This document shows, piece after piece, positions 1 to 6,429 of a stretch of DNA of 6,429 nucleotides. Each line of letters starts with the position of its first letter. Position 1 is the stretch's first letter. The translations under genes and the position numbers were made by a program. The notes under the pieces are model-generated. The model ran no database searches and was not told the DNA's origin. It saw nothing but the letters and a program-made list of their open reading frames with translations. The DNA comes from a virus. Where the stretch lies: positions 1 to 6,429 of the IMG/VR virus record IMGVR_UViG_3300013666_000001; one strand, 5' to 3'.

Positions 1-103
1 GTGCATGCACATGGAAGTCGCTTTATGTACTTCGTTGACTGGCTCACGGTGTCCCAAGAACACGCATTCGACCTTCCGGTCGTGTGCGATGTGATGACTA
101 TCA
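1..103. repeat. Terminal direct repeat, left copy (circular-genome overlap)
   Basis: Bases 1-103 are identical to 6327-6429 in my base-by-base comparison. Confidence 0.95.
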
Positions 104-1158
104 CAATCGACACGAACACCAATGAAGTGCTCTCCACCCGCCAGCCTCGCTTCAAGCATGAGGCCAGTTATTCCACTTCAGTCACGATCCATGTGCAGGG
201 GCGGAAAATCCGCGTCGAGGGCAACCCAAGCCGGGTAGGGCGCCTGGACAACCTGTTCGGTTTCTCGACCATCGAACAGTGTGTTTCGGTCTACAACCAG
301 CTTCTGGCCGAGTACGGCCTACCGGGCTTCACCCGCTGCACCCGTGTTGATCTGCGGGACGGCGCTTCAGGTGCAAAGACCGGTGATCGCGTGGCAGACG
401 GCGCCAAGATCGAGCGCATCGATCTCACCACGAACGTATCGGTAGGCGAGGGTAACGTGCTGGCCTACCTGCGCGGCGTTTCCTCCCAGCGCATCGGCCA
501 CAGCATCGGCTTCCTGTATCCCAACGGCCGCACCGTCGCGTGGACCCCGAAGGGCAACGGCAAAGGCGGGCGCCTCCAGTACCGCAAGGCCTACGACAAG
601 GCTTTTGAGCTGGACGAGAACCTGCTCCCGAAGATCAAGCGCCTGTACGGCGATGAATCCCCCGAGTTCCTGTACGTGCAGCGCGTCCGCGACTACTGCG
701 CCCTTCATGGCGTGGTTCGGATGGAGCAGGAGCTGAAAAACGAATTTTTGCAGCGCGAATGCTTGGCCTATTGGGGCCTGTTTGACGAACGGCGTTTTGC
801 CGAACTCCACGACGAGTTTTTGAGAATTGACGAACGACTGAAGGTGACCGCCATGGACATCGTTTCCATATCCGAGCAGCTCTTGGCTGAGCAGATCGTA
901 GACACCACCCGTGCAGCGAACACCACCGCTATGTATGCCATTCAGTGGATGCACGGCCAGCAGTTCGACTTCGGCAAGAAGCAAGTCCAGACCCATGCCG
1001 CTCGCCTCAACCGCATCGGCATCAACATCCGTAACGCCTGCGATACCTCACGCTTCGCGCCTGTCTTCGTCCGTCAGGCCCGCGAAATCACCAAGTCCAC
1101 CGTGCTGGCCATTCCGAGCTGGTACCAGCGCCCGAACCATCTGCAGGTGGCTGCATGA
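25..1158 (+). CDS. Rolling-circle replication initiator (filamentous-phage gpII / RstA-like Rep)
   Basis: Long ORF 1-1158. I prefer the ATG at 25 (MYFVDWLT...), which has GGAAG 7 nt upstream. The GTG at 1 (=6327 on the circle) is an alternative; the frame is closed upstream by TGA at 6309-6311. An N-terminal DWL motif, EGNPSRVGRLDNLFGF and a Tyr motif (RKAYDKAFEL) match what I recall of phage/plasmid Rep proteins of the gene II/CRI/Rep_trans type. It is the first gene downstream of a divergent repressor, like rstA in CTXphi. Confidence 0.8.
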   Translation: MYFVDWLTVSQEHAFDLPVVCDVMTITIDTNTNEVLSTRQPRFKHEASYSTSVTIHVQGRKIRVEGNPSRVGRLDNLFGFSTIEQCVSVYNQLLAEYGLPGFTRCTRVDLRDGASGAKTGDRVADGAKIERIDLTTNVSVGEGNVLAYLRGVSSQRIGHSIGFLYPNGRTVAWTPKGNGKGGRLQYRKAYDKAFELDENLLPKIKRLYGDESPEFLYVQRVRDYCALHGVVRMEQELKNEFLQRECLAYWGLFDERRFAELHDEFLRIDERLKVTAMDIVSISEQLLAEQIVDTTRAANTTAMYAIQWMHGQQFDFGKKQVQTHAARLNRIGINIRNACDTSRFAPVFVRQAREITKSTVLAIPSWYQRPNHLQVAA

Positions 1159-1271
1159 TGCGCACCCTCTACTCCGTTGCTTGCCAGTTTTTCTTTATTG
1201 GCGGTGCCATTGCTGGCTGGTTCATCGCTGCTTTCTACATCGGCAAGTTATTTGGATGGTTCTTCGCATGA
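1155..1271 (+). CDS. Small hydrophobic protein (38 aa), translationally coupled to Rep
   Basis: My translation: MMRTLYSVACQFFFIGGAIAGWFIAAFYIGKLFGWFFA. The ATG overlaps the rep stop as ATGA (1155-1158), with AGGTGG at 1145-1150. It has one predicted TM segment. The six-frame track omits it because it is short. Confidence 0.45.
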   Translation: MMRTLYSVACQFFFIGGAIAGWFIAAFYIGKLFGWFFA

Positions 1272-1354
1272 TCGCACCGACCCTCTCTCTCCTGGTCACC
1301 CTCGCGGGCGGTGTCATCGCGCTCTACTTCGTGCGCTTGGAGTTCCGTCCATGA
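1268..1354 (+). CDS. Small hydrophobic protein (28 aa), translationally coupled
   Basis: MIAPTLSLLVTLAGGVIALYFVRLEFRP. The start overlaps the previous stop as ATGA (1268-1271) and its own stop overlaps the next start as ATGA (1351-1354). Single TM segment. Size and composition resemble gpVII/gpIX-type minor coat proteins, but the position is atypical. Confidence 0.35.
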   Translation: MIAPTLSLLVTLAGGVIALYFVRLEFRP

Positions 1355-1584
1355 CTCGCACCGTCAGCTTCCAAGGCACCCAGCTCACCAGCGGCCAGCG
1401 CCGCCGCCTTCAAGAGCAACAGCAGGCCCGGCCATTCGTTAACCCGGTTCTGCAGCAGCAAGTAAACGAAACCCTGGCAGCGCTCGAAGCTCGCCAGTCC
1501 GAGGGCATCAAGCCCGAACGCCAATGGTTCTTGGAACGCCAAGAGCGTGGCACTCCCTGCGTTGCCGACCTGTTCGGCTTTTAA
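1351..1584 (+). CDS. Hypothetical basic, Gln-rich protein (77 aa)
   Basis: MTRTVSFQGTQLTSGQRRRLQEQQQ... GGAG at 1339-1342 lies 8 nt upstream of the ATG. It fills the gap between the micro-ORFs and the gpV-like gene. It is the C-terminal part of track ORF 1177-1584. Confidence 0.6.
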   Translation: MTRTVSFQGTQLTSGQRRRLQEQQQARPFVNPVLQQQVNETLAALEARQSEGIKPERQWFLERQERGTPCVADLFGF

Positions 1585-1596
1585 GAGGCAATACCC

Positions 1597-1884
1597 ATGG
1601 CTATGACTATCAAGATCGAAACCACCGGCAACTTCCGTACCGGTACCGCTGCCAAGTCTGGCAAGCCCTACTGGATGGCCGAAGCCTACGCGCACCTGCC
1701 GGGCGTCCCGTACCCGCAGAAGTTCAGCTACTACGCCGCCTCTCAGAACGAAGTTTTGCCGGTCGGTCATTACGAGTGCGACATTTCCTGTTCTATCAAG
1801 GATGACCGCATTCACTTCGAAGTTGACCCGCGCCAAGCCCGCCGCATTTCCGCTCCGGCTCCTAAGGCGGTAGGCGCTAATTAA
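1597..1884 (+). CDS. Putative ssDNA-binding protein (gpV-like)
   Basis: 95-aa ORF with AGAGG at 1584-1588, 8 nt upstream of the ATG. Its size and its position between the replication genes and the coat genes match inovirus gene V. Function is inferred from synteny only. Confidence 0.6.
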   Translation: MAMTIKIETTGNFRTGTAAKSGKPYWMAEAYAHLPGVPYPQKFSYYAASQNEVLPVGHYECDISCSIKDDRIHFEVDPRQARRISAPAPKAVGAN

Positions 1885-2072
1885 TGGACACCTACGTCTG
1901 CACTGAACTTGTCAATGGCGTCTGCCAAACATGGGTCGTGCAGTCTTCAATAATTCCGCCTCTCACTGTTACTGATGGGCTGAAACTCGGATGGGCCGTT
2001 GTTGCGTGTTACGGCGCTGCCTGGGGATGTGGTTTGTTAACACGCTTTCTTCTATCTCATGAAAGGAACTGA
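1884..2072 (+). CDS. Small membrane protein (62 aa), candidate minor coat (gpVII/IX position)
   Basis: The start overlaps the upstream stop (TAATG). It has a C-terminal hydrophobic segment (GWAVVACYGAAWGCGLL) and lies directly upstream of the major coat gene. Confidence 0.55.
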   Translation: MDTYVCTELVNGVCQTWVVQSSIIPPLTVTDGLKLGWAVVACYGAAWGCGLLTRFLLSHERN

Positions 2073-2075
2073 AAT

Positions 2076-2216
2076 ATGGATGGCTCGATGATTCCCGCTG
2101 ACGTACTGACCGCGATCACTGCACTCAAGGGCGATGTTCAAACCATCGGTGGTGCAATGTTCGTTGTTGTGCTTGTAGTGGTGGCTTTCGCCTACTTCCG
2201 CCGTTCCGCTCGTTAA
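2076..2216 (+). CDS. Major coat protein (gpVIII), leaderless Pf3-type
   Basis: My translation: MDGSMIPADVLTAITALKGDVQTIGGAMFVVVLVVVAFAYFRRSAR (46 aa). It has an acidic N-terminus, a hydrophobic core and a basic C-terminus. AAGGA lies upstream. TAL.GDV.TIGGA aligns with TAVQADITTIGGA of the Pf3 coat as I remember it. A terminator follows. Confidence 0.85.
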   Translation: MDGSMIPADVLTAITALKGDVQTIGGAMFVVVLVVVAFAYFRRSAR

Positions 2217-2234
2217 TTCGAGCCTCGGCAACTA

Positions 2235-2258
2235 GGGGGCTTAGCGGCCCCCTTTTTT
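2235..2258 (+). terminator. Rho-independent terminator after the coat gene
   Basis: GGGGGC (2235-2240) pairs with GCCCCC (2247-2252) around a 6-nt loop, followed by TTTTTT (2253-2258). The placement is the same as the terminator after gene VIII in Ff phages. Confidence 0.8.
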
Positions 2259-2271
2259 ATTGGAGTTCCGA

Positions 2272-2364
2272 ATGGACGTTGCAAGTTGGGAGTTTTCAGG
2301 ATGGCTTGTTGTTTTCGTTATGGTCTCGTCCTTCTGGCTGCTGTTCTATACAGCGTCCAAGTAA
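2272..2364 (+). CDS. Candidate 30-aa hydrophobic micro-ORF overlapping the gpIII start (speculative)
   Basis: MDVASWEFSGWLVVFVMVSSFWLLFYTASK. TGGAG at 2261-2265 lies 6 nt upstream of the ATG. It overlaps the gpIII signal-peptide region in another frame, which can by itself produce hydrophobic alternative-frame peptides. Confidence 0.2.
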   Translation: MDVASWEFSGWLVVFVMVSSFWLLFYTASK

Positions 2365-3638
2365 GCGCCTCGGTTCTTACTCCTATAACCGACCCCGGCA
2401 CCGGTCAAAAGGTATATGTTCCAAAGCCTGACGGACTTGAGCGCTCGCGCACCTTTAATTCCAACGTCAACGTCGGGTCAGGCTCTTTAACGATCCCTAC
2501 CAAGCTTAGTGGTAAATTCGGGTGGGCGAAGGTCGGTACCGCTGTACGCACTATTGCCAAGGGGTCGCCGCAGGCTGTTATAGGTAGTGTTGCACTCGCA
2601 TACCTTCTTGACAAAATACCGGGCGGCTCCGTAGGTGCCGACGGAACGCTATACCGGACTCCGGACCTAGTGACCTCCGGTTACTACTGGCCGGCCAACC
2701 TCGCCAACTCGTCCCCAGGGCATGTCGTTACCCGCCATTCATCAGCGGACGCTGCATGCAAGTCCCTATGGCCGCAGGCTGTCTCTCCGCAAACTGTTCG
2801 CCTCAAACAGACTGGCACTACTTCATACGATTGCATTCGTTATGATCCTTGGTCGTCTGTGCCCGAGCAATATATCGGCTACACGCAAAGAACGGCGTTT
2901 AACTGTCCTAACGGTGTTAACCCTGACTACACATGCCGAAGTACTAAGCCTTCGCCTGTTCCTTTTTCGGATGCCGATTATGAACAGCTCGCATCCCACG
3001 TCCCATCAATTCCACAAGAGCATTGGGCGGACTTCGGCCCTCGTCTCGACTCAATCCCCGGAACCTTTGATTATCCAGACGCCACCGACTTCACAGGCCC
3101 CGCCTCTGTTGATTTGCCGTCAGTTACTACAACCACGACTAACCCCTCAACTGGCGATATATCTGTAACTGAAACCATGCCTTCAATTCAGTTCAAGTAC
3201 AGTCCCTCGCCGCTTTCTGTTACCGCGACCCCGACCTCAACTACCACCACATATCAGAACGGCATCAAAACTAGCACTTCTACAACCACGACCACCACCA
3301 ACAATACGACCACCGTCACGCCGCCTAAAATCGAAGTCCCAACTGACTGCGCGTTCATGCCGACAGTCTGTTCATTCATTGATTGGGTTAAACAACCATT
3401 CACCGAGGAAGCTCCAGACTTCTCTGATTTTATCGATGATGAGGATTTTTCAGACTCCATAACTATTCCGGGCAATGCAACTTGTCCAGCTCCTACAATG
3501 ATCGAGACTAATCTCGGCTCATATGAATTCAGCTGGCAGCCTGCGTGCACCTGGGCGGGAATGATCAAACCGCTTGTTATCATTGCTGCACTAATTGCAG
3601 CCATCTATATCAGTCTCGGCGTAGCGAGGTCGGAATAA
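2301..3638 (+). CDS. Adsorption / minor coat protein (gpIII-like)
   Basis: The track ORF starts at TTG 2286. I prefer ATG 2301, which has GGGAG at 2288-2292. It has a signal peptide (MACCFRYGLVLLAAVLYSVQVSA|S), Thr-rich low-complexity linkers (TTTTTNPS, TSTTTT, TSTSTTTTTTNNTTTVT) and a C-terminal TM anchor (LVIIAALIAAIYISLGV). It is the largest ORF and lies downstream of the coat gene. Confidence 0.8.
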   Translation: MACCFRYGLVLLAAVLYSVQVSASVLTPITDPGTGQKVYVPKPDGLERSRTFNSNVNVGSGSLTIPTKLSGKFGWAKVGTAVRTIAKGSPQAVIGSVALAYLLDKIPGGSVGADGTLYRTPDLVTSGYYWPANLANSSPGHVVTRHSSADAACKSLWPQAVSPQTVRLKQTGTTSYDCIRYDPWSSVPEQYIGYTQRTAFNCPNGVNPDYTCRSTKPSPVPFSDADYEQLASHVPSIPQEHWADFGPRLDSIPGTFDYPDATDFTGPASVDLPSVTTTTTNPSTGDISVTETMPSIQFKYSPSPLSVTATPTSTTTTYQNGIKTSTSTTTTTTNNTTTVTPPKIEVPTDCAFMPTVCSFIDWVKQPFTEEAPDFSDFIDDEDFSDSITIPGNATCPAPTMIETNLGSYEFSWQPACTWAGMIKPLVIIAALIAAIYISLGVARSE

Positions 3639-3919
3639 TGCCTGCGATTCTCGTAACTATCGGCGTTTACATAATCTCCAGCGTCATCGCTAAGATATTC
3701 GTTGCGCTTGGCATTGGCGTCTTTACTTACTACGGATTGCTCACGCTCGTTGAGCAACTTGTACAGCAGGTGCAAGTTGCTTTTGGCGGTCTTCCGGCGC
3801 AAGTAAGCCAAGTTCTTAGTATCGCCGGAATTCCTCAGGCACTTTCCATCGTCTGTAGCGCTTTCCTAACTCGCGCTTCCATACAAGCCATTCAAACCTT
3901 CTTCGGGTCTCGCATATGA
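3638..3919 (+). CDS. Minor coat / membrane protein (gpVI-like)
   Basis: 93 aa beginning MPAILVTIGVYIISSVIAKIFVALGIGVF. GAGG lies 8 nt upstream. The start overlaps the gpIII stop (TAATG) and the stop overlaps the gpI start (ATGA). It has multiple hydrophobic segments and sits between gIII and gI as in other inoviruses. Confidence 0.7.
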   Translation: MPAILVTIGVYIISSVIAKIFVALGIGVFTYYGLLTLVEQLVQQVQVAFGGLPAQVSQVLSIAGIPQALSIVCSAFLTRASIQAIQTFFGSRI

Positions 3920-4941
3920 TCACCCTTATCACCGCTGTTCCCGGTAGCGGGAAAACCCTTTACTGCATTGGCCTGATTCTTAAGGCAGTTGAGGAGGGCA
4001 GACCGGTCTATTCCAACATCGCCGGCCTGAAAATCCCGCAGTGCCATCCAGCCCCTGACGACTGGAGAGACACACCCGAGGGCTCGCTCGTTGTTTACGA
4101 CGAGGCTCAACAGCCGCACCTGTATCCATCCACCGCTCACCGTGGTGAGGTCAAGGACGAGCGTCTACGCCAGATGGAAGTCCATCGGCACACTGGCCAT
4201 GACCTTGTTTTCGTCAGCCAATCGCCCAGCTTTCTTCATCACCACATCCGCAAGCTGGCCGGTGAGCACATCCACCTCTATCGAGCCTTTGGCGCTAAGA
4301 TCGTTACCAAGTACACATGGCAACATACCGTTGACTCTCCCAACGATCGGGGCGAGCAGGGCAGAGCAGACAGCGTCCCATGGAAGTTTCCGAAAGAGCA
4401 CTTCCAGTACTACCAGTCGGCCACCATCCATACTCACAAGTTCAAGGTGCCTAAGAAGCTCGCGGCGCTCTTGATATTCATCGTCGTTGTATCTGGTCTG
4501 GTCGTTTGGAATGCTTCAACCAATCAGAACAGCCTGCTGACCGGCTCAGGTGCTGACATTCATCAACCTGTTGCCTCTGCAACGGCAGCGCCTTCTGAGC
4601 CCGGTGGTGTACGCGCAGCGTCCACCACGGGCCAGAAGAAAGCGCTGCCAGCTACGACAACCCTCTATGACTGGTCAGAAACCGAGACGGCCAAGCCTGT
4701 TGCCGGCTGCATTTACAACGCGACCCGTTGCCAGTGTTTCGACGCTTCCGGTTCGCTCTACGCGATGGCTCATGCACAATGCCTGTCCGTGGCAACTAAC
4801 ATGCTGCCGCGATCCATCAACGTAGGAGGTTCTAGCCGTGGGTCTTCAAGACAGGGAATGGTTTCAGGAGAGTCGCAACAATCGCTCATCGGCGCGAATC
4901 CATTCGCCGAGGCAGCAACCCCGGCGCCGGGGGTTCTTTAG
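3916..4941 (+). CDS. Assembly NTPase gpI (Zot family)
   Basis: The N-terminus MITLITAVPGSGKT contains a Walker A motif. LVVYDEAQ is a Walker B motif. A central TM segment (LAALLIFIVVVSGLVVW) is followed by a Cys-containing C-terminal domain. This is the typical Zot/pI architecture and position. Confidence 0.88.
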   Translation: MITLITAVPGSGKTLYCIGLILKAVEEGRPVYSNIAGLKIPQCHPAPDDWRDTPEGSLVVYDEAQQPHLYPSTAHRGEVKDERLRQMEVHRHTGHDLVFVSQSPSFLHHHIRKLAGEHIHLYRAFGAKIVTKYTWQHTVDSPNDRGEQGRADSVPWKFPKEHFQYYQSATIHTHKFKVPKKLAALLIFIVVVSGLVVWNASTNQNSLLTGSGADIHQPVASATAAPSEPGGVRAASTTGQKKALPATTTLYDWSETETAKPVAGCIYNATRCQCFDASGSLYAMAHAQCLSVATNMLPRSINVGGSSRGSSRQGMVSGESQQSLIGANPFAEAATPAPGVL

Positions 4942-5035
4942 TCACTTTGTCGTGCTCGTCCTGGGCATTGTGATCGGCATGGTCGTTGCCGACCTGCACT
5001 GGCTCGACATGCTGCGGCAGCAGCTCCCGTTCTGA
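4838..5035 (+). CDS. Hypothetical 65-aa membrane protein overlapping the gpI 3' end out of frame
   Basis: GTG start with a perfect AGGAGG (4824-4829) 8 nt upstream. Basic N-terminus and one TM segment (FFSHFVVLVLGIVIGMVVA). It overlaps gpI by 104 nt in a different frame. Confidence 0.45.
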   Translation: MGLQDREWFQESRNNRSSARIHSPRQQPRRRGFFSHFVVLVLGIVIGMVVADLHWLDMLRQQLPF

Positions 5036-5041
5036 TTGGGC

Positions 5042-5076
5042 GCTTCGCATAATTGAGGCTCGGCGTTATGTTGAGC
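5042..5076 (+). other. dif-like XerC/XerD site A with an over-long spacer (attP half)
   Basis: GCTTCGCATAA (9/11 to the E. coli dif XerC arm GGTGCGCATAA), then a 13-nt spacer, then TTATGTTGAGC (8/11 to the XerD arm TTATGTTAAAT). Confidence 0.65.
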
Positions 5077-5121
5077 CGGTGCGCTGGGACTATCCTGCGG
5101 CCAGCGCAGCCCGTAGGGCAG

Positions 5122-5150
5122 GCGTAACATAACGGCGGATTATGCGAGGC
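5122..5150 (-). other. dif-like XerC/XerD site B, inverted orientation (attP half)
   Basis: The minus strand reads GCCTCGCATAA-TCCGCCG-TTATGTTACGC, with arms of 8/11 each to dif and a 7-nt spacer. It is complementary to site A, so the two pair in ssDNA. Confidence 0.65.
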
Positions 5151-5153
5151 GAC

Positions 5154-5282
5154 TGGTACCATTTTTGCGGATCTCCGATCGCACCAGGTCGAACAAATGG
5201 TACCAATCTCTAGGTATTCTTCGGATGGTTTGGTACCATTTCCCTCCTCGAGGAACGAACCTGGTTGAAAGGAAAGGTACCA
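5154..5282. promoter_or_regulatory. Array of four palindromic operator-like sites (consensus AWWGGTACCWWT)
   Basis: TGGTACCA at 5154-5161, 5198-5205 and 5231-5238, and AGGTACCA at 5275-5282. A/T-rich symmetric flanks: CTGGTACCATTTT, AAATGGTACCAAT, TTTGGTACCATTT, AAAGGTACCAAAA. Centre-to-centre spacing is 44, 33 and 44 bp. The last site overlaps the RBS of the 5285 ORF. Confidence 0.6.
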
Positions 5283-5284
5283 AA

Positions 5285-5539
5285 ATGCTGATCAAATTCG
5301 ATGTGACCACCGAGGAAGGTGACCGCCTCAAGATGCAGTACGGCCAGAAGGTCGCCAGTAAGGCGTTCAAAATGGCCGCACTCGATGCCTTCGACCTGTA
5401 CCACAAGAATCAGGAGCTGCACGAAGTCATCGATAGCCAGCGAACGGAGATTCGCCGGCTCCGCCACATCATCGAGCAGGCCCGCGCCTCGGCTGCTCAG
5501 CTGCTTGAAAAGACTGGTCAGGAGGACCTTTATGCTTGA
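5285..5539 (+). CDS. Hypothetical 84-aa protein, possible ribbon-helix-helix regulator with a C-terminal coiled coil
   Basis: ATG at 5285 with GGAAAGG upstream. The track ORF from TTG 5165 would read through the operator array, so I reject that start. The N-terminus LIKFDVTTEEGDRLKMQYG...ASKAFKMAALDAF has a strand-helix-helix pattern. The C-terminus is heptad-like (EIRRLRHIIEQARASAAQLLE). Confidence 0.6.
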   Translation: MLIKFDVTTEEGDRLKMQYGQKVASKAFKMAALDAFDLYHKNQELHEVIDSQRTEIRRLRHIIEQARASAAQLLEKTGQEDLYA

Positions 5540-5747
5540 GTACTACATGGACCCAGCAACGGAGCGGCGCTGGCTTGATAACGCCCATGTCAGGGCGTGG
5601 AAGTCTTGGTGGTATTGGGAGGGGAAGCACTTCGACAATGGTCGCCGCCACCCCGATTGGCAGTTGGTCAGTCCGCCCGGTAACGCGCAATGCGCTGCTT
5701 TGAACGTCCCCATTCCCGCTGGAATCCTTGATCAGTCAAGGGCCTGA
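5532..5747 (+). CDS. Hypothetical Trp-rich 71-aa protein
   Basis: ATG at 5532 with AGGAGG (5520-5525) 6 nt upstream. It overlaps the upstream stop by 8 nt. MLEYYMDPATERRWLDNAHVRAWKSWWYWEGKHF... I recognise no family. Confidence 0.55.
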   Translation: MLEYYMDPATERRWLDNAHVRAWKSWWYWEGKHFDNGRRHPDWQLVSPPGNAQCAALNVPIPAGILDQSRA

Positions 5748-5751
5748 CCGG

Positions 5752-5769
5752 AAGCCGCAGCGGCTTTTT
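5752..5769 (+). terminator. Weak candidate rho-independent terminator
   Basis: AAGCC (5752-5756) pairs with GGCTT (5762-5766) around a 5-nt loop, followed by TTT. It lies directly after the stop at 5747. The stem is short. Confidence 0.35.
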
Positions 5770-5979
5770 CGCATCGCTCCACCGCGAAAAAACGAACGGG
5801 TGAGGATCAGGGGCGAAGCCTTCACCCTTGACCCTTCCTCCGTCCCTCCACTCTCCGCCTGGGGAGCAGGGGAGAGCTTTTCCCCCTGCACCCCTGGCCC
5901 TCGCCGAGAGACCCCCGGTAGGGCCGTCGGAGACGCTCTTGATCTTGCTTCTTGGCTCGCCGATCTGGAGCCGGATGGG

Positions 5980-6024
5980 GTGGGGGTGCTGTTACACCCC
6001 CACTTTACCGTGGTTTCCCACGGT
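5980..6024. other. Tandem perfect hairpins (candidate terminator of the minus-strand gene and/or ori or packaging structure)
   Basis: GTGGGGGTG (5980-5988) pairs with CACCCCCAC (5995-6003), 9 bp with a 6-nt loop. ACCGTGG (6007-6013) pairs with CCACGGT (6018-6024), 7 bp with a 4-nt loop. The second hairpin abuts the stop codon of the minus-strand ORF. Confidence 0.5.
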
Positions 6025-6233
6025 CACTCGTACTCAATGACTATCTCGCCCTCGCTTGTCAGCTGGGCGTAAGCCAATGATTTTTCAAGGATTTTGTGCA
6101 CAAGCTCGCTATCCCTGAGCGGTTGGCGCCCCTGCTTTATCAGTAACTTGTTGATTTCTATTGCTTTTTGCCTGAGCGCTTCCTGCTCGGATTGTGTCAG
6201 GCGCACGTTCGTTGGCATGTCGTTCCCATTCAT
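6024..6233 (-). CDS. Putative phage repressor, ribbon-helix-helix-like (69 aa), divergent from rep
   Basis: MNGNDMPTNVRLTQSEQEALRQKAIEINKL...RDSELVHKILEKSLAY shows a beta-strand (VRLT) followed by two helices, typical of Arc/CopG-type proteins. The minus strand has GAGGTGGATCA before the ATG. It is the only minus-strand gene, placed like rstR relative to rstA. Confidence 0.65.
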   Translation of the reverse strand: MNGNDMPTNVRLTQSEQEALRQKAIEINKLLIKQGRQPLRDSELVHKILEKSLAYAQLTSEGEIVIEYE

Positions 6234-6337
6234 TGATCCACCTCATCAAAATCATACGTGTGTGCATGTGACTCGTATTGACTTGTGCACGTTCGCACGT
6301 GTAGATTTTGAGCCATTGTTATTTGTGTGCATGCACA
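6234..6337. promoter_or_regulatory. Divergent promoter/operator region between the repressor and rep
   Basis: A 10-bp direct repeat TGTGTGCATG occurs at 6259-6268 and 6324-6333. TTGTGCAC is at 6283-6290. The 12-bp palindrome TGTGCATGCACA is at 6326-6337. GCACGT occurs twice (6288-6293 and 6295-6300). On the minus strand, TATGAT (complement of 6251-6256) is a possible -10 for the repressor. Confidence 0.55.
6278..6307 (+). promoter_or_regulatory. Candidate sigma70-type rep promoter
   Basis: TTGACT (6278-6283), an 18-nt spacer, then TAGATT (6302-6307), about 45 nt upstream of the rep ATG (6351 = 25). The spacer contains the GTGCAC/GCACGT motifs. Confidence 0.5.
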
Positions 6338-6429
6338 TGGAAGTCGCTTTATGTACTTCGTTGACTGGCTCACGGTGTCCCAAGAACACGCATTCGACCT
6401 TCCGGTCGTGTGCGATGTGATGACTATCA
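6327..6429. repeat. Terminal direct repeat, right copy (circular-genome overlap)
   Basis: Identical to 1-103. This implies a 6326-bp circular or tandem unit. Confidence 0.95.
6351..6429 (+). CDS. Rep N-terminus, duplicate partial copy truncated by the window end
   Basis: Same sequence as 25-103 (MYFVDWLTVSQEHAFDLPVVCDVMTI...). It is the same gene seen again because of the terminal redundancy. Confidence 0.9.
   Translation, partial: MYFVDWLTVSQEHAFDLPVVCDVMTI

Follow-up and report, generated by a model that had tools for sequence, protein, structure and literature searches.

The DNA considered here, positions 1 to 6,429 of IMG/VR virus record IMGVR_UViG_3300013666_000001 (the whole stretch is hereafter called the window), is a small inovirus genome or a genome-length segment, and it carries, directly ahead of a gene for an 84-amino-acid (84-aa) protein, four short palindromes centred on GGTACC. 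We consider it probable, though well short of certain, that these sites form an autoregulatory operator array bound by the product of the downstream gene. As proposed, the array would consist of two pairs of 8-bp palindromes, with paired sites 44 bp apart from centre to centre and neighbouring pairs separated by about whole helical turns (~11 bp). The 84-aa protein would present a DNA-reading N-terminal module of the ribbon-helix-helix (RHH) type, whose second helix would run on as a 60-residue coiled-coil rod; each palindrome would be read by a protein dimer, and the rods would join two dimers such that one oligomer spans both sites of a pair. Site 3 would sit at the gene's own extended -10 element and site 4 over the 5' untranslated region (5' UTR) and ribosome-binding site, so that occupancy would shut off the gene's own transcription and that of anything co-transcribed with it. 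The sites and the gene are as follows, in positions of the window.

5154-5161: site 1, TGGTACCA, with the inner flank ATTTTT; left member of pair 1
5198-5205: site 2, TGGTACCA, with CAAAT as the inner flank on its left side; right member of pair 1, placed 44 bp after site 1
5231-5238: site 3, TGGTACCA; left member of pair 2, placed 33 bp after site 2 and overlapping an extended -10-like element
5275-5282: site 4, AGGTACCA; right member of pair 2, placed 44 bp after site 3 and overlapping the ribosome-binding site
5285-5539, plus strand: gene for the 84-aa protein (phrog_8031, function unknown to PHROGs)

An earlier reading of this DNA (the original prediction) had claimed four copies of (T/A)GGTACCA, and these are present as described, with centres at 5157.5, 5201.5, 5234.5 and 5278.5 and spacings of 44/33/44 bp. 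GGTACC occurs seven times in the window against an expectation of 0.98, a count reached by 0 of 200 shuffles, and WGGTACCW (W being A or T) occurs five times against 0.18 expected, which no shuffle reaches either; the abundance of sites in the window is far above chance. The copies of GGTACC at 1121, 1642 and 2535 are where they were said to be, with the full 8-mer only at 1120-1127. The prediction was also right to place the last site over the ribosome-binding and start region, as site 4 overlaps GAAAGGAAAGG (5267-5277), which lies 7 nt before the ATG at 5285, and itself ends 2 nt ahead of that ATG. It erred in giving every site a palindrome of 12-14 bp: sites 1-3 carry TGGTACCATTT, and site 4 the variant TGGTACCTTT. 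The site elements alternate in orientation (+ - + -), so that in each 44-bp pair the A/T tract lies for the most part towards the inside. Judged from these sequences, the functional unit is the 44-bp pair of sites and not four equivalent sites.

The motif and its phasing, whose absence from homologous phages had been named in advance as grounds for abandoning the prediction, are kept in relatives of the window: four sites at 44/33-34/44 bp occur in dozens of inovirus contigs and of Pseudomonas and Stutzerimonas prophages, and arrays are kept in ~50 distinct inovirus and prophage sequences of these two genera. Loci were first gathered by protein search, which yields a small family only, and then by the DNA pattern alone in viral contigs and genomes. 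Those reached through the protein carry four GGTACC cores at 44/33-34/44 bp and place the final core 9-12 nt ahead of the ATG (the core of site 4 begins 9 nt ahead of it in most close relatives), and this layout persists even at 45% protein identity, where the spacers are unalignable. The genomic arrays found by DNA pattern belong to Pseudomonas, Stutzerimonas, Phytopseudomonas and one Cellvibrionaceae metagenome-assembled genome. Across 54 distinct array/gene combinations, with 4-7 sites per array, nearly all keep 44 bp within a pair, and the inter-pair spacing is 22, 32-34 or 55 bp. As such, the original prediction's whole multiples of 11 bp stand as an approximation and not as a strict rule, the distance between pairs being 33 or 34 bp in relatives, with spacings of 22-24, 32 or 55 bp, and rarely of 41-43 bp, elsewhere. 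A distant lineage with a Rep_1-type replication protein shows 42/33 bp between its three GGTACC cores. The information profile amounts to ~2 bits per core position, is moderate in the A/T flanks and falls near 0 in the spacers, and this conservation of the cores amid diverged spacers argues for selection on the sites and on their geometry. In a few loci an extra small gene follows site 3, and a degenerate repeat of the site-3/4 unit precedes the 84-aa gene. Pattern matches in L043, L085, L103, L112 and L113 were set aside as unrelated GGTACC-rich tandem repeats. Two cultured inoviruses of P. aeruginosa carry the module, 17897 (L134, accession OR621025, positions 1-514) and NEU2023 (PQ144888); that of 17897 comprises a hairpin of the phage attachment site (attP), GGTACC at 125/169/191/235 (44/22/44 bp) and an 86-aa gene, and its homologue of the 84-aa protein is labelled in GenBank merely as a 'DNA-binding protein'.

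Without exception, the genuine arrays recovered by DNA pattern have downstream an open reading frame (ORF) of ~85 aa that starts with ML[IV]K, MTLIK, MPLVK or VLIK, with one small gene in between in a few loci, and some of these array-linked ORFs are too divergent for the protein search to recover. By profile search the 84-aa family comprises 104 clusters, all of them from the Pseudomonas group or metagenomic, and no Pfam domain was found in it. The original prediction had offered two candidate regulators, the 84-aa protein and the 69-aa protein encoded on the minus strand at 6024-6233. The former gains considerably from the comparison, as the motif switches exactly with its N-terminus; the latter was rejected as the binder, as no more than roughly one in three of the phages with an array has its gene. 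The replication protein was likewise rejected, given that the relative silverpheasant213 (L001) has a replication protein 93% identical to that of the window and yet no GGTACC at all, and that arrays also occur beside unrelated replication proteins, including the Rep_1-type protein of L132. On sequence grounds, then, the 84-aa family is the sole consistent partner of the array.

The link between protein and motif is most evident where the motif changes. The 89-aa homologue of silverpheasant213 (hhalign probability 95.5%; same PHROG) starts KTLTLRDV, and its gene is surrounded by TGATAGCA sites, spaced 44/24/44 bp upstream and 44/44 bp downstream. The L-T-[LI]-R-D type of N-terminus goes with TG[C/A]TAGCA arrays in 10 of the 10 loci examined, at 44/24/44 bp or close variants (the intra-pair spacing is 42-43 bp in L131 and L133), and no GGTACC array was found in those ten loci. 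In P0048, P0053, P0058 and P0061 the C-terminal halves are nearer to the GGTACC-type proteins than to those of their own class, yet the DNA shows TGCTAGCA sites, and it follows that the motif tracks the first ~35 residues. We also observe a second small coiled-coil protein (phrog_13909, start MR.(A/P)LDL), whose gene is placed between attP and the array in L025 and in every TGCTAGCA-type locus examined. This protein, apparently a distant paralogue of the 84-aa family, has an N-terminus that is unchanged between the motif classes. Its gene lies at the following positions.

L001 6196-6426; L025 196-426; L127 836-1069; L128 83-313: gene for the phrog_13909 protein

With an alignment of 86 sequences, AlphaFold2 models the 84-aa protein as an extended segment at residues 1-8 (strand MLIKFD), a helix at 9-19, a turn at 20-23 (GQKV) and a helix at 24-83, with a mean predicted local distance difference test score (pLDDT) of 92.4; with 17 sequences AlphaFold returned one long, uninformative helix. 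The beta-alpha-alpha order of RHH proteins is matched by the 86-sequence model, a monomer, in which the strand cannot pair. The fold is thus probably of RHH topology with the second helix prolonged to 60 residues, to judge from the model. In sequence searches the C-terminal part scores as coiled coil only. The segment from S25 to Q79 is exactly 55 residues long in 86 of 86 relatives, down to 17% identity and with no insertion or deletion, and a rod so constant in length, taken together with the invariant 44-bp spacing, suggests an oligomer that bridges both sites of a pair. By rough arithmetic, two rods of ~80 Å joined at their conserved C-terminal ends would span ~150 Å, which corresponds to 44 bp.

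The placement of the second pair is consistent with control of the gene's own expression. Two signals bear on this.

5211-5239, plus strand: putative promoter of the 84-aa gene, with -35 TAGGTA at 5211-5216, a 17-bp spacer and TG-extended -10 TACCAT at 5234-5239
5267-5277, plus strand: ribosome-binding region GAAAGGAAAGG of the 84-aa gene, as read from the sequence

Site 3 coincides with the extended -10-like element TGGTACCAT (TGG-TACCAT, 5231-5239), and the extended -10 pattern is kept in the TGCTAGCA class as TGC-TAGCAT. The promoter call itself is based on a comparative -35 test: in 29 non-redundant arrays from relatives TACCAT is preceded, at a distance of 16-17 bp, by a TTGnnn hexamer, the mean match to TTGACA being 3.41 of 6 positions as compared with 2.52 +/- 0.17 in shuffles (maximum 3.07), and the same test on the minus strand gives 2.31, with no enrichment. 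Transcription is predicted to start near 5246, and site 4 would therefore fall in the 5' UTR over the ribosome-binding site. We infer from this arrangement of sites and promoter the classical layout of an autorepressed promoter. A sigma-54 reading (-24/-12, GG-N10-GC) of site 1 and its flank at 5154-5169 (TGGTACCATTTTTGCG; TGGTAC-N5-TTGCG) was dropped as a probable coincidence, since the spacing is not kept in most relatives.

A number of observations weigh against the autoregulatory reading and are gathered here. The window's own -35 hexamer, TAGGTA, is weak (3 of 6), and a generic sigma-70 scan found no promoter within the array. Pfam scans of 30 members of the family and of TGCTAGCA-type members returned no significant RHH profile, only coiled-coil families, and profile searches of the PDB with the whole protein and with residues 1-40 returned no RHH entry. 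In Foldseek the top PDB matches are TCP-domain/DNA complexes and the NikR N-terminal domain, both of the RHH type, with root-mean-square deviations of 2.2-2.5 Å over 40 residues and all at E > 3, and the non-significant matches among the BFVD viral models (E > 0.8) include a HicB antitoxin and a NikA-like protein; as none of these matches is significant, the fold is taken to be no more than probable. The ribbon-helix-helix guess of the original prediction, one of two kinds of dimeric regulator that it had proposed, agrees with a confident AlphaFold topology and lacks a significant match in sequence or fold. The co-variation of motif and N-terminus involves two motif classes only, among related sequences that are not independent of one another. 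Furthermore, the autoregulatory model leaves unexplained a third conserved element, ACCWGGT, in both classes of array, where a second, common factor may act, and the nearly constant position of the array after the attP hairpin (21 of 28) hints at a role beyond autoregulation. These neighbouring elements are placed as follows.

5041-5151, plus strand: dif-like attP hairpin, ~110 nt, imperfect, with arms TTCGCATAAT/ATTATGCGA and CGTTATGTT/AACATAACG
5183-5189: third conserved element, ACCAGGT, lying within pair 1 at 15.5 bp from the site 2 centre
5259-5265: third conserved element, ACCTGGT, lying within pair 2 at 16.5 bp from the site 4 centre

These two are the only copies of ACCWGGT in the window. 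CCWGG, usually as ACCWGGT, lies within the pairs in 26 of 29 spacers of either pair, where ~1.7 would be expected, with the centre of ACCWGGT 13-14 nt from one core and never between pairs. As both motif classes have it, it does not depend on the specificity of the core, and it may be bound by a shared factor. A second G+C-rich palindrome (CTGCAG, CTCGAG or GCCGGC) is found ~13 bp beyond ACCWGGT. The attP hairpin ends 3 nt before site 1, and its arms are dif-like XerC and XerD half-sites that meet on folding, as in the attP(+) of CTXphi. It is kept in silverpheasant213 and in most related contigs, and attP-like arms precede 21 of 28 non-redundant arrays at no more than 330 nt, most often at 11-16 nt from site 1. 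In L110 (P. mangiferae) there are two tandem prophage copies at dif, ~6.9 kb apart.

Given this neighbourhood, the array and the 84-aa protein could be conceived as serving XerC/XerD recombination at the dif-like attP beside them in an architectural or accessory role, in which they would control integration, mask the site or prevent excision, in the manner of the accessory sequences of plasmid cer and psi or the arm sites of lambda attP. We regard this as unlikely, and it would be compatible with autoregulation in any case. Its appeal lies in the location directly beside a XerC/XerD core site and in the order attP, array, gene, which is held across phage backbones and in prophages at dif, the tandem copies of L110 among them. 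However, in L025/L026, L053, L109 and L119 site 1 is separated from attP by a gene or has no recognisable attP in its vicinity; additional sites lie on the downstream side of the gene, away from attP, in the TGCTAGCA-type loci and in L025; and nothing in the data ties the 84-aa protein to Xer. It is a good deal less likely that the sites act in single-stranded (+) DNA, their paired palindromes forming minus-strand origin hairpins or a packaging signal, with a duplex TGnTAnnAT that mimics an extended -10 for priming by RNA polymerase, as hairpins B and C of Ff do. Odd and even sites are indeed reverse-complementary, including their A/T flanks, the arrays fold better than shuffles (z of -1.1 to -4.7), and both motif classes keep the pattern TGnTAnCA(T). 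Nevertheless, the complementarity of the arms stops beyond the core and a short A/T tract (3-7 of 12), such that a conserved (+)-strand structure with compensatory changes is not supported, and the predicted topology differs among eight arrays, that of the window included (1-2/3-4 or 1-4/2-3), at low ensemble frequency. A hairpin has no need of an exact 38-nt loop or of ~11-bp phasing between pairs; the downstream TGATAGCA sites of silverpheasant213 are direct repeats of a non-palindromic 8-mer, and as such are unable to pair; and co-variation with a protein N-terminus is not predicted by such a scheme.

We consider it very improbable that the sites are iteron-like binding sites of a replication initiator of the G2P/pII family at the plus-strand origin. 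The pII protein of Ff does bind repeated sites beside its nick site, and the array lies within the main non-coding region, but the absence of any GGTACC from silverpheasant213 beside a nearly unchanged replication protein, and the occurrence of arrays beside unrelated ones such as that of L132, contradict this proposal. Scarcely credible is the suggestion that sites 3 and 4 are conserved because they encode an N-terminal extension (MVWYHFPPRGTNLVERKGTK), as added by many gene callers. Several database entries do start 20-21 codons upstream, with a peptide that looks conserved; against this, the upstream frame is closed in the divergent arrays L029, L061 and L080, site 4 lies at varying distances from the ATG, the ATG at 5285 has a Shine-Dalgarno sequence ahead of it, sites 1 and 2 lie outside any such ORF, and ML[IV]K constitutes the conserved start.

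If the array is an autoregulatory operator, it can be set beside a number of known systems. Mnt and Arc of phage P22 are RHH repressors, and Mnt has a C-terminal coiled-coil tetramerisation domain. The likeness would extend to a small phage protein (~83 aa) with an N-terminal strand-helix-helix and a C-terminal helical oligomerisation region, and to symmetric subsites on one face of the DNA, phased at ~11 bp, in an operator that overlaps the promoter. However, no sequence similarity to Mnt could be detected, the N-terminal profile reaching a probability of 0.4% in hhalign; helix B of the 84-aa family itself extends over 60 residues; and there are 4-7 sites, 44 bp apart in pairs and 22-55 bp apart between them, rather than a single operator of ~20 bp in which a tetramer binds two subsites about one turn apart. 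AmrZ of Pseudomonas aeruginosa is an RHH regulator with C-terminal tetramerisation that autoregulates via two sites, and so has the host genus in common with the present module and would further share with it an RHH domain joined to C-terminal oligomerisation, and autoregulation by way of separate sites. The searches with the 84-aa protein did not return AmrZ as a homologue, and it is a chromosomal global regulator whose sites are A/T-rich and not strictly spaced palindromes.

The RHH centromere-binding proteins with iterated sites (ParR/parC of plasmid R1, ParG, and omega of pSM19035) resemble the module in that phased arrays of short sites flank or overlap the promoter of the binder's operon, and in that the sites may be direct or inverted, as with the TGATAGCA-type sites. 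The four sites of the window surround the putative promoter, and relatives have sites downstream of the gene as well, a trait of plasmid partition systems of type Ib/II. Unlike those systems, the 6.4-kb genome holds no nucleoside triphosphatase of the ParM/ParA type, its only nucleoside triphosphatase being Zot/pI, and the repeat unit is 44 bp as opposed to 7-11 or 20 bp. In CTXphi the repressor RstR, a helix-turn-helix protein encoded divergently from the replication gene, binds the ig-2 operators. That phage likewise is filamentous, integrates at dif through a folded attP and has phage-specific repressor/operator 'immunity' variants, but the position of RstR is taken here by the 69-aa gene, or in relatives by an XRE-type gene, and the GGTACC array and its gene form a separate module next to attP. 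The Xer accessory sequences of cer and psi, which work with ArgR/ArcA and PepA, provide a protein-binding region of ~130-180 bp immediately beside a XerC/XerD core site, as is found here; the binder would in this case be phage-encoded, however, and some arrays are not adjacent to attP. By analogy, the module would work like RHH repressor/operator systems without detectable membership in the Mnt/Arc, AmrZ, ParR/parC or omega families. Its distinctive traits are the 44-bp paired-site geometry, the continuous long helix and the extra conserved element in the spacers. No description of it was found in the searchable literature on the motif, on dif-integrating filamentous phages of Pseudomonas or on RHH operators of inoviruses.

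The remainder of the window conforms to an inovirus. PHROGs and Pfam assign its ORFs to replication, single-stranded DNA binding, coat, Zot and small unknowns, and near-identical array modules in prophages of Stutzerimonas and Pseudomonas place its host in that group. The features other than those already given are as follows.

1-1158: gene for a G2P-type replication protein
1177-1584: 135-aa ORF, between the replication and single-stranded DNA-binding genes
1597-1884: gene for the single-stranded DNA-binding protein
2076-2216: gene for the major coat protein
2286-3638: gene for a pIII-like protein
further: gene for a pVI-like protein
3916-4941: Zot/pI gene
5036-5284: non-coding stretch after Zot/pI
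5532-5747: 71-aa ORF, following the 84-aa gene
6024-6233, minus strand: 69-aa gene (phrog_5642)

The 135-aa ORF has no family match and is probably a real gene, because tblastn matches it at 40-98% identity in most related contigs. A terminator-like G+C hairpin with a T-rich tail at 4919-4932, just before the stop of Zot, lies inside a 65-aa ORF (4838-5035) and casts some doubt upon it; a 91% identical copy of this ORF is present in L077. The 71-aa ORF, likewise without a family match, overlaps the stop codon of the 84-aa gene (ATGCTTGA), and a homologue follows the TGCTAGCA-type gene in L127. A role as toxin partner of an antitoxin-like 84-aa protein is not supported, as the ORF is missing from 33 of 33 related contigs and seen only in L127. 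A 50-nt stretch at 5961-6010, which holds a hairpin (GTGGGGGTG..CACCCCCAC), is 94-97% identical to unannotated DNA of the P. aeruginosa filamentous phages 17897 and WX_Y; its counterpart in 17897, flanked by two minus-strand genes, sits shortly downstream of the repressor gene, and the stretch may be a shared terminator or some other conserved element. The 69-aa minus-strand gene faces the replication gene, and its product has an RHH-like start (NVRLTQSEQEAL). In the adjoining intergenic region, within 6024-6429, TGTGTGCATG occurs twice, at 6259 and 6324, and the only sigma-70-like match falls there as well (6278-6307). This gene and the intergenic region are likely the lysogeny repressor and its operator; relatives have an XRE-type helix-turn-helix gene in place of the 69-aa gene. 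No structured RNA or tRNA was found, and Rfam gave no match.

Genomes and metagenomes commonly contain small (~7 kb) filamentous phages of Pseudomonas and Stutzerimonas that integrate at dif, and the regulation of these phages is unstudied. The module described here is a concrete candidate for a switch in these phages, with a defined operator, an unannotated cognate family (phrog_8031, no Pfam) and two natural specificity classes between which N-terminal modules are exchanged, and the invariance of both the 44-bp spacing and the helix length makes the module well suited to the question of how a small repressor gauges distance along DNA. A bolder proposal, which we advance as doubtful in its entirety, would make the protein a rigid 'molecular ruler' repressor with a 55-residue rod free of insertions and deletions, assign ACCWGGT to a shared (probably host) factor, couple the complex to XerCD integration at attP and derive immunity groups from exchangeable N-terminal modules. 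Were it true, two DNA-reading heads held at a fixed distance would explain the exact 44 bp across very divergent phages, and exchange of the N-terminal module (TGGTACCA as opposed to TGCTAGCA) would create immunity-like specificity groups. The CTX-type attP next door raises the possibility that regulation is coupled with Xer-dependent integration, in that a nucleoprotein complex beside the folded attP would link the regulatory state of the phage to XerCD-mediated integration at dif, and the cultured carriers 17897 and NEU2023 make experimental work on the module feasible.

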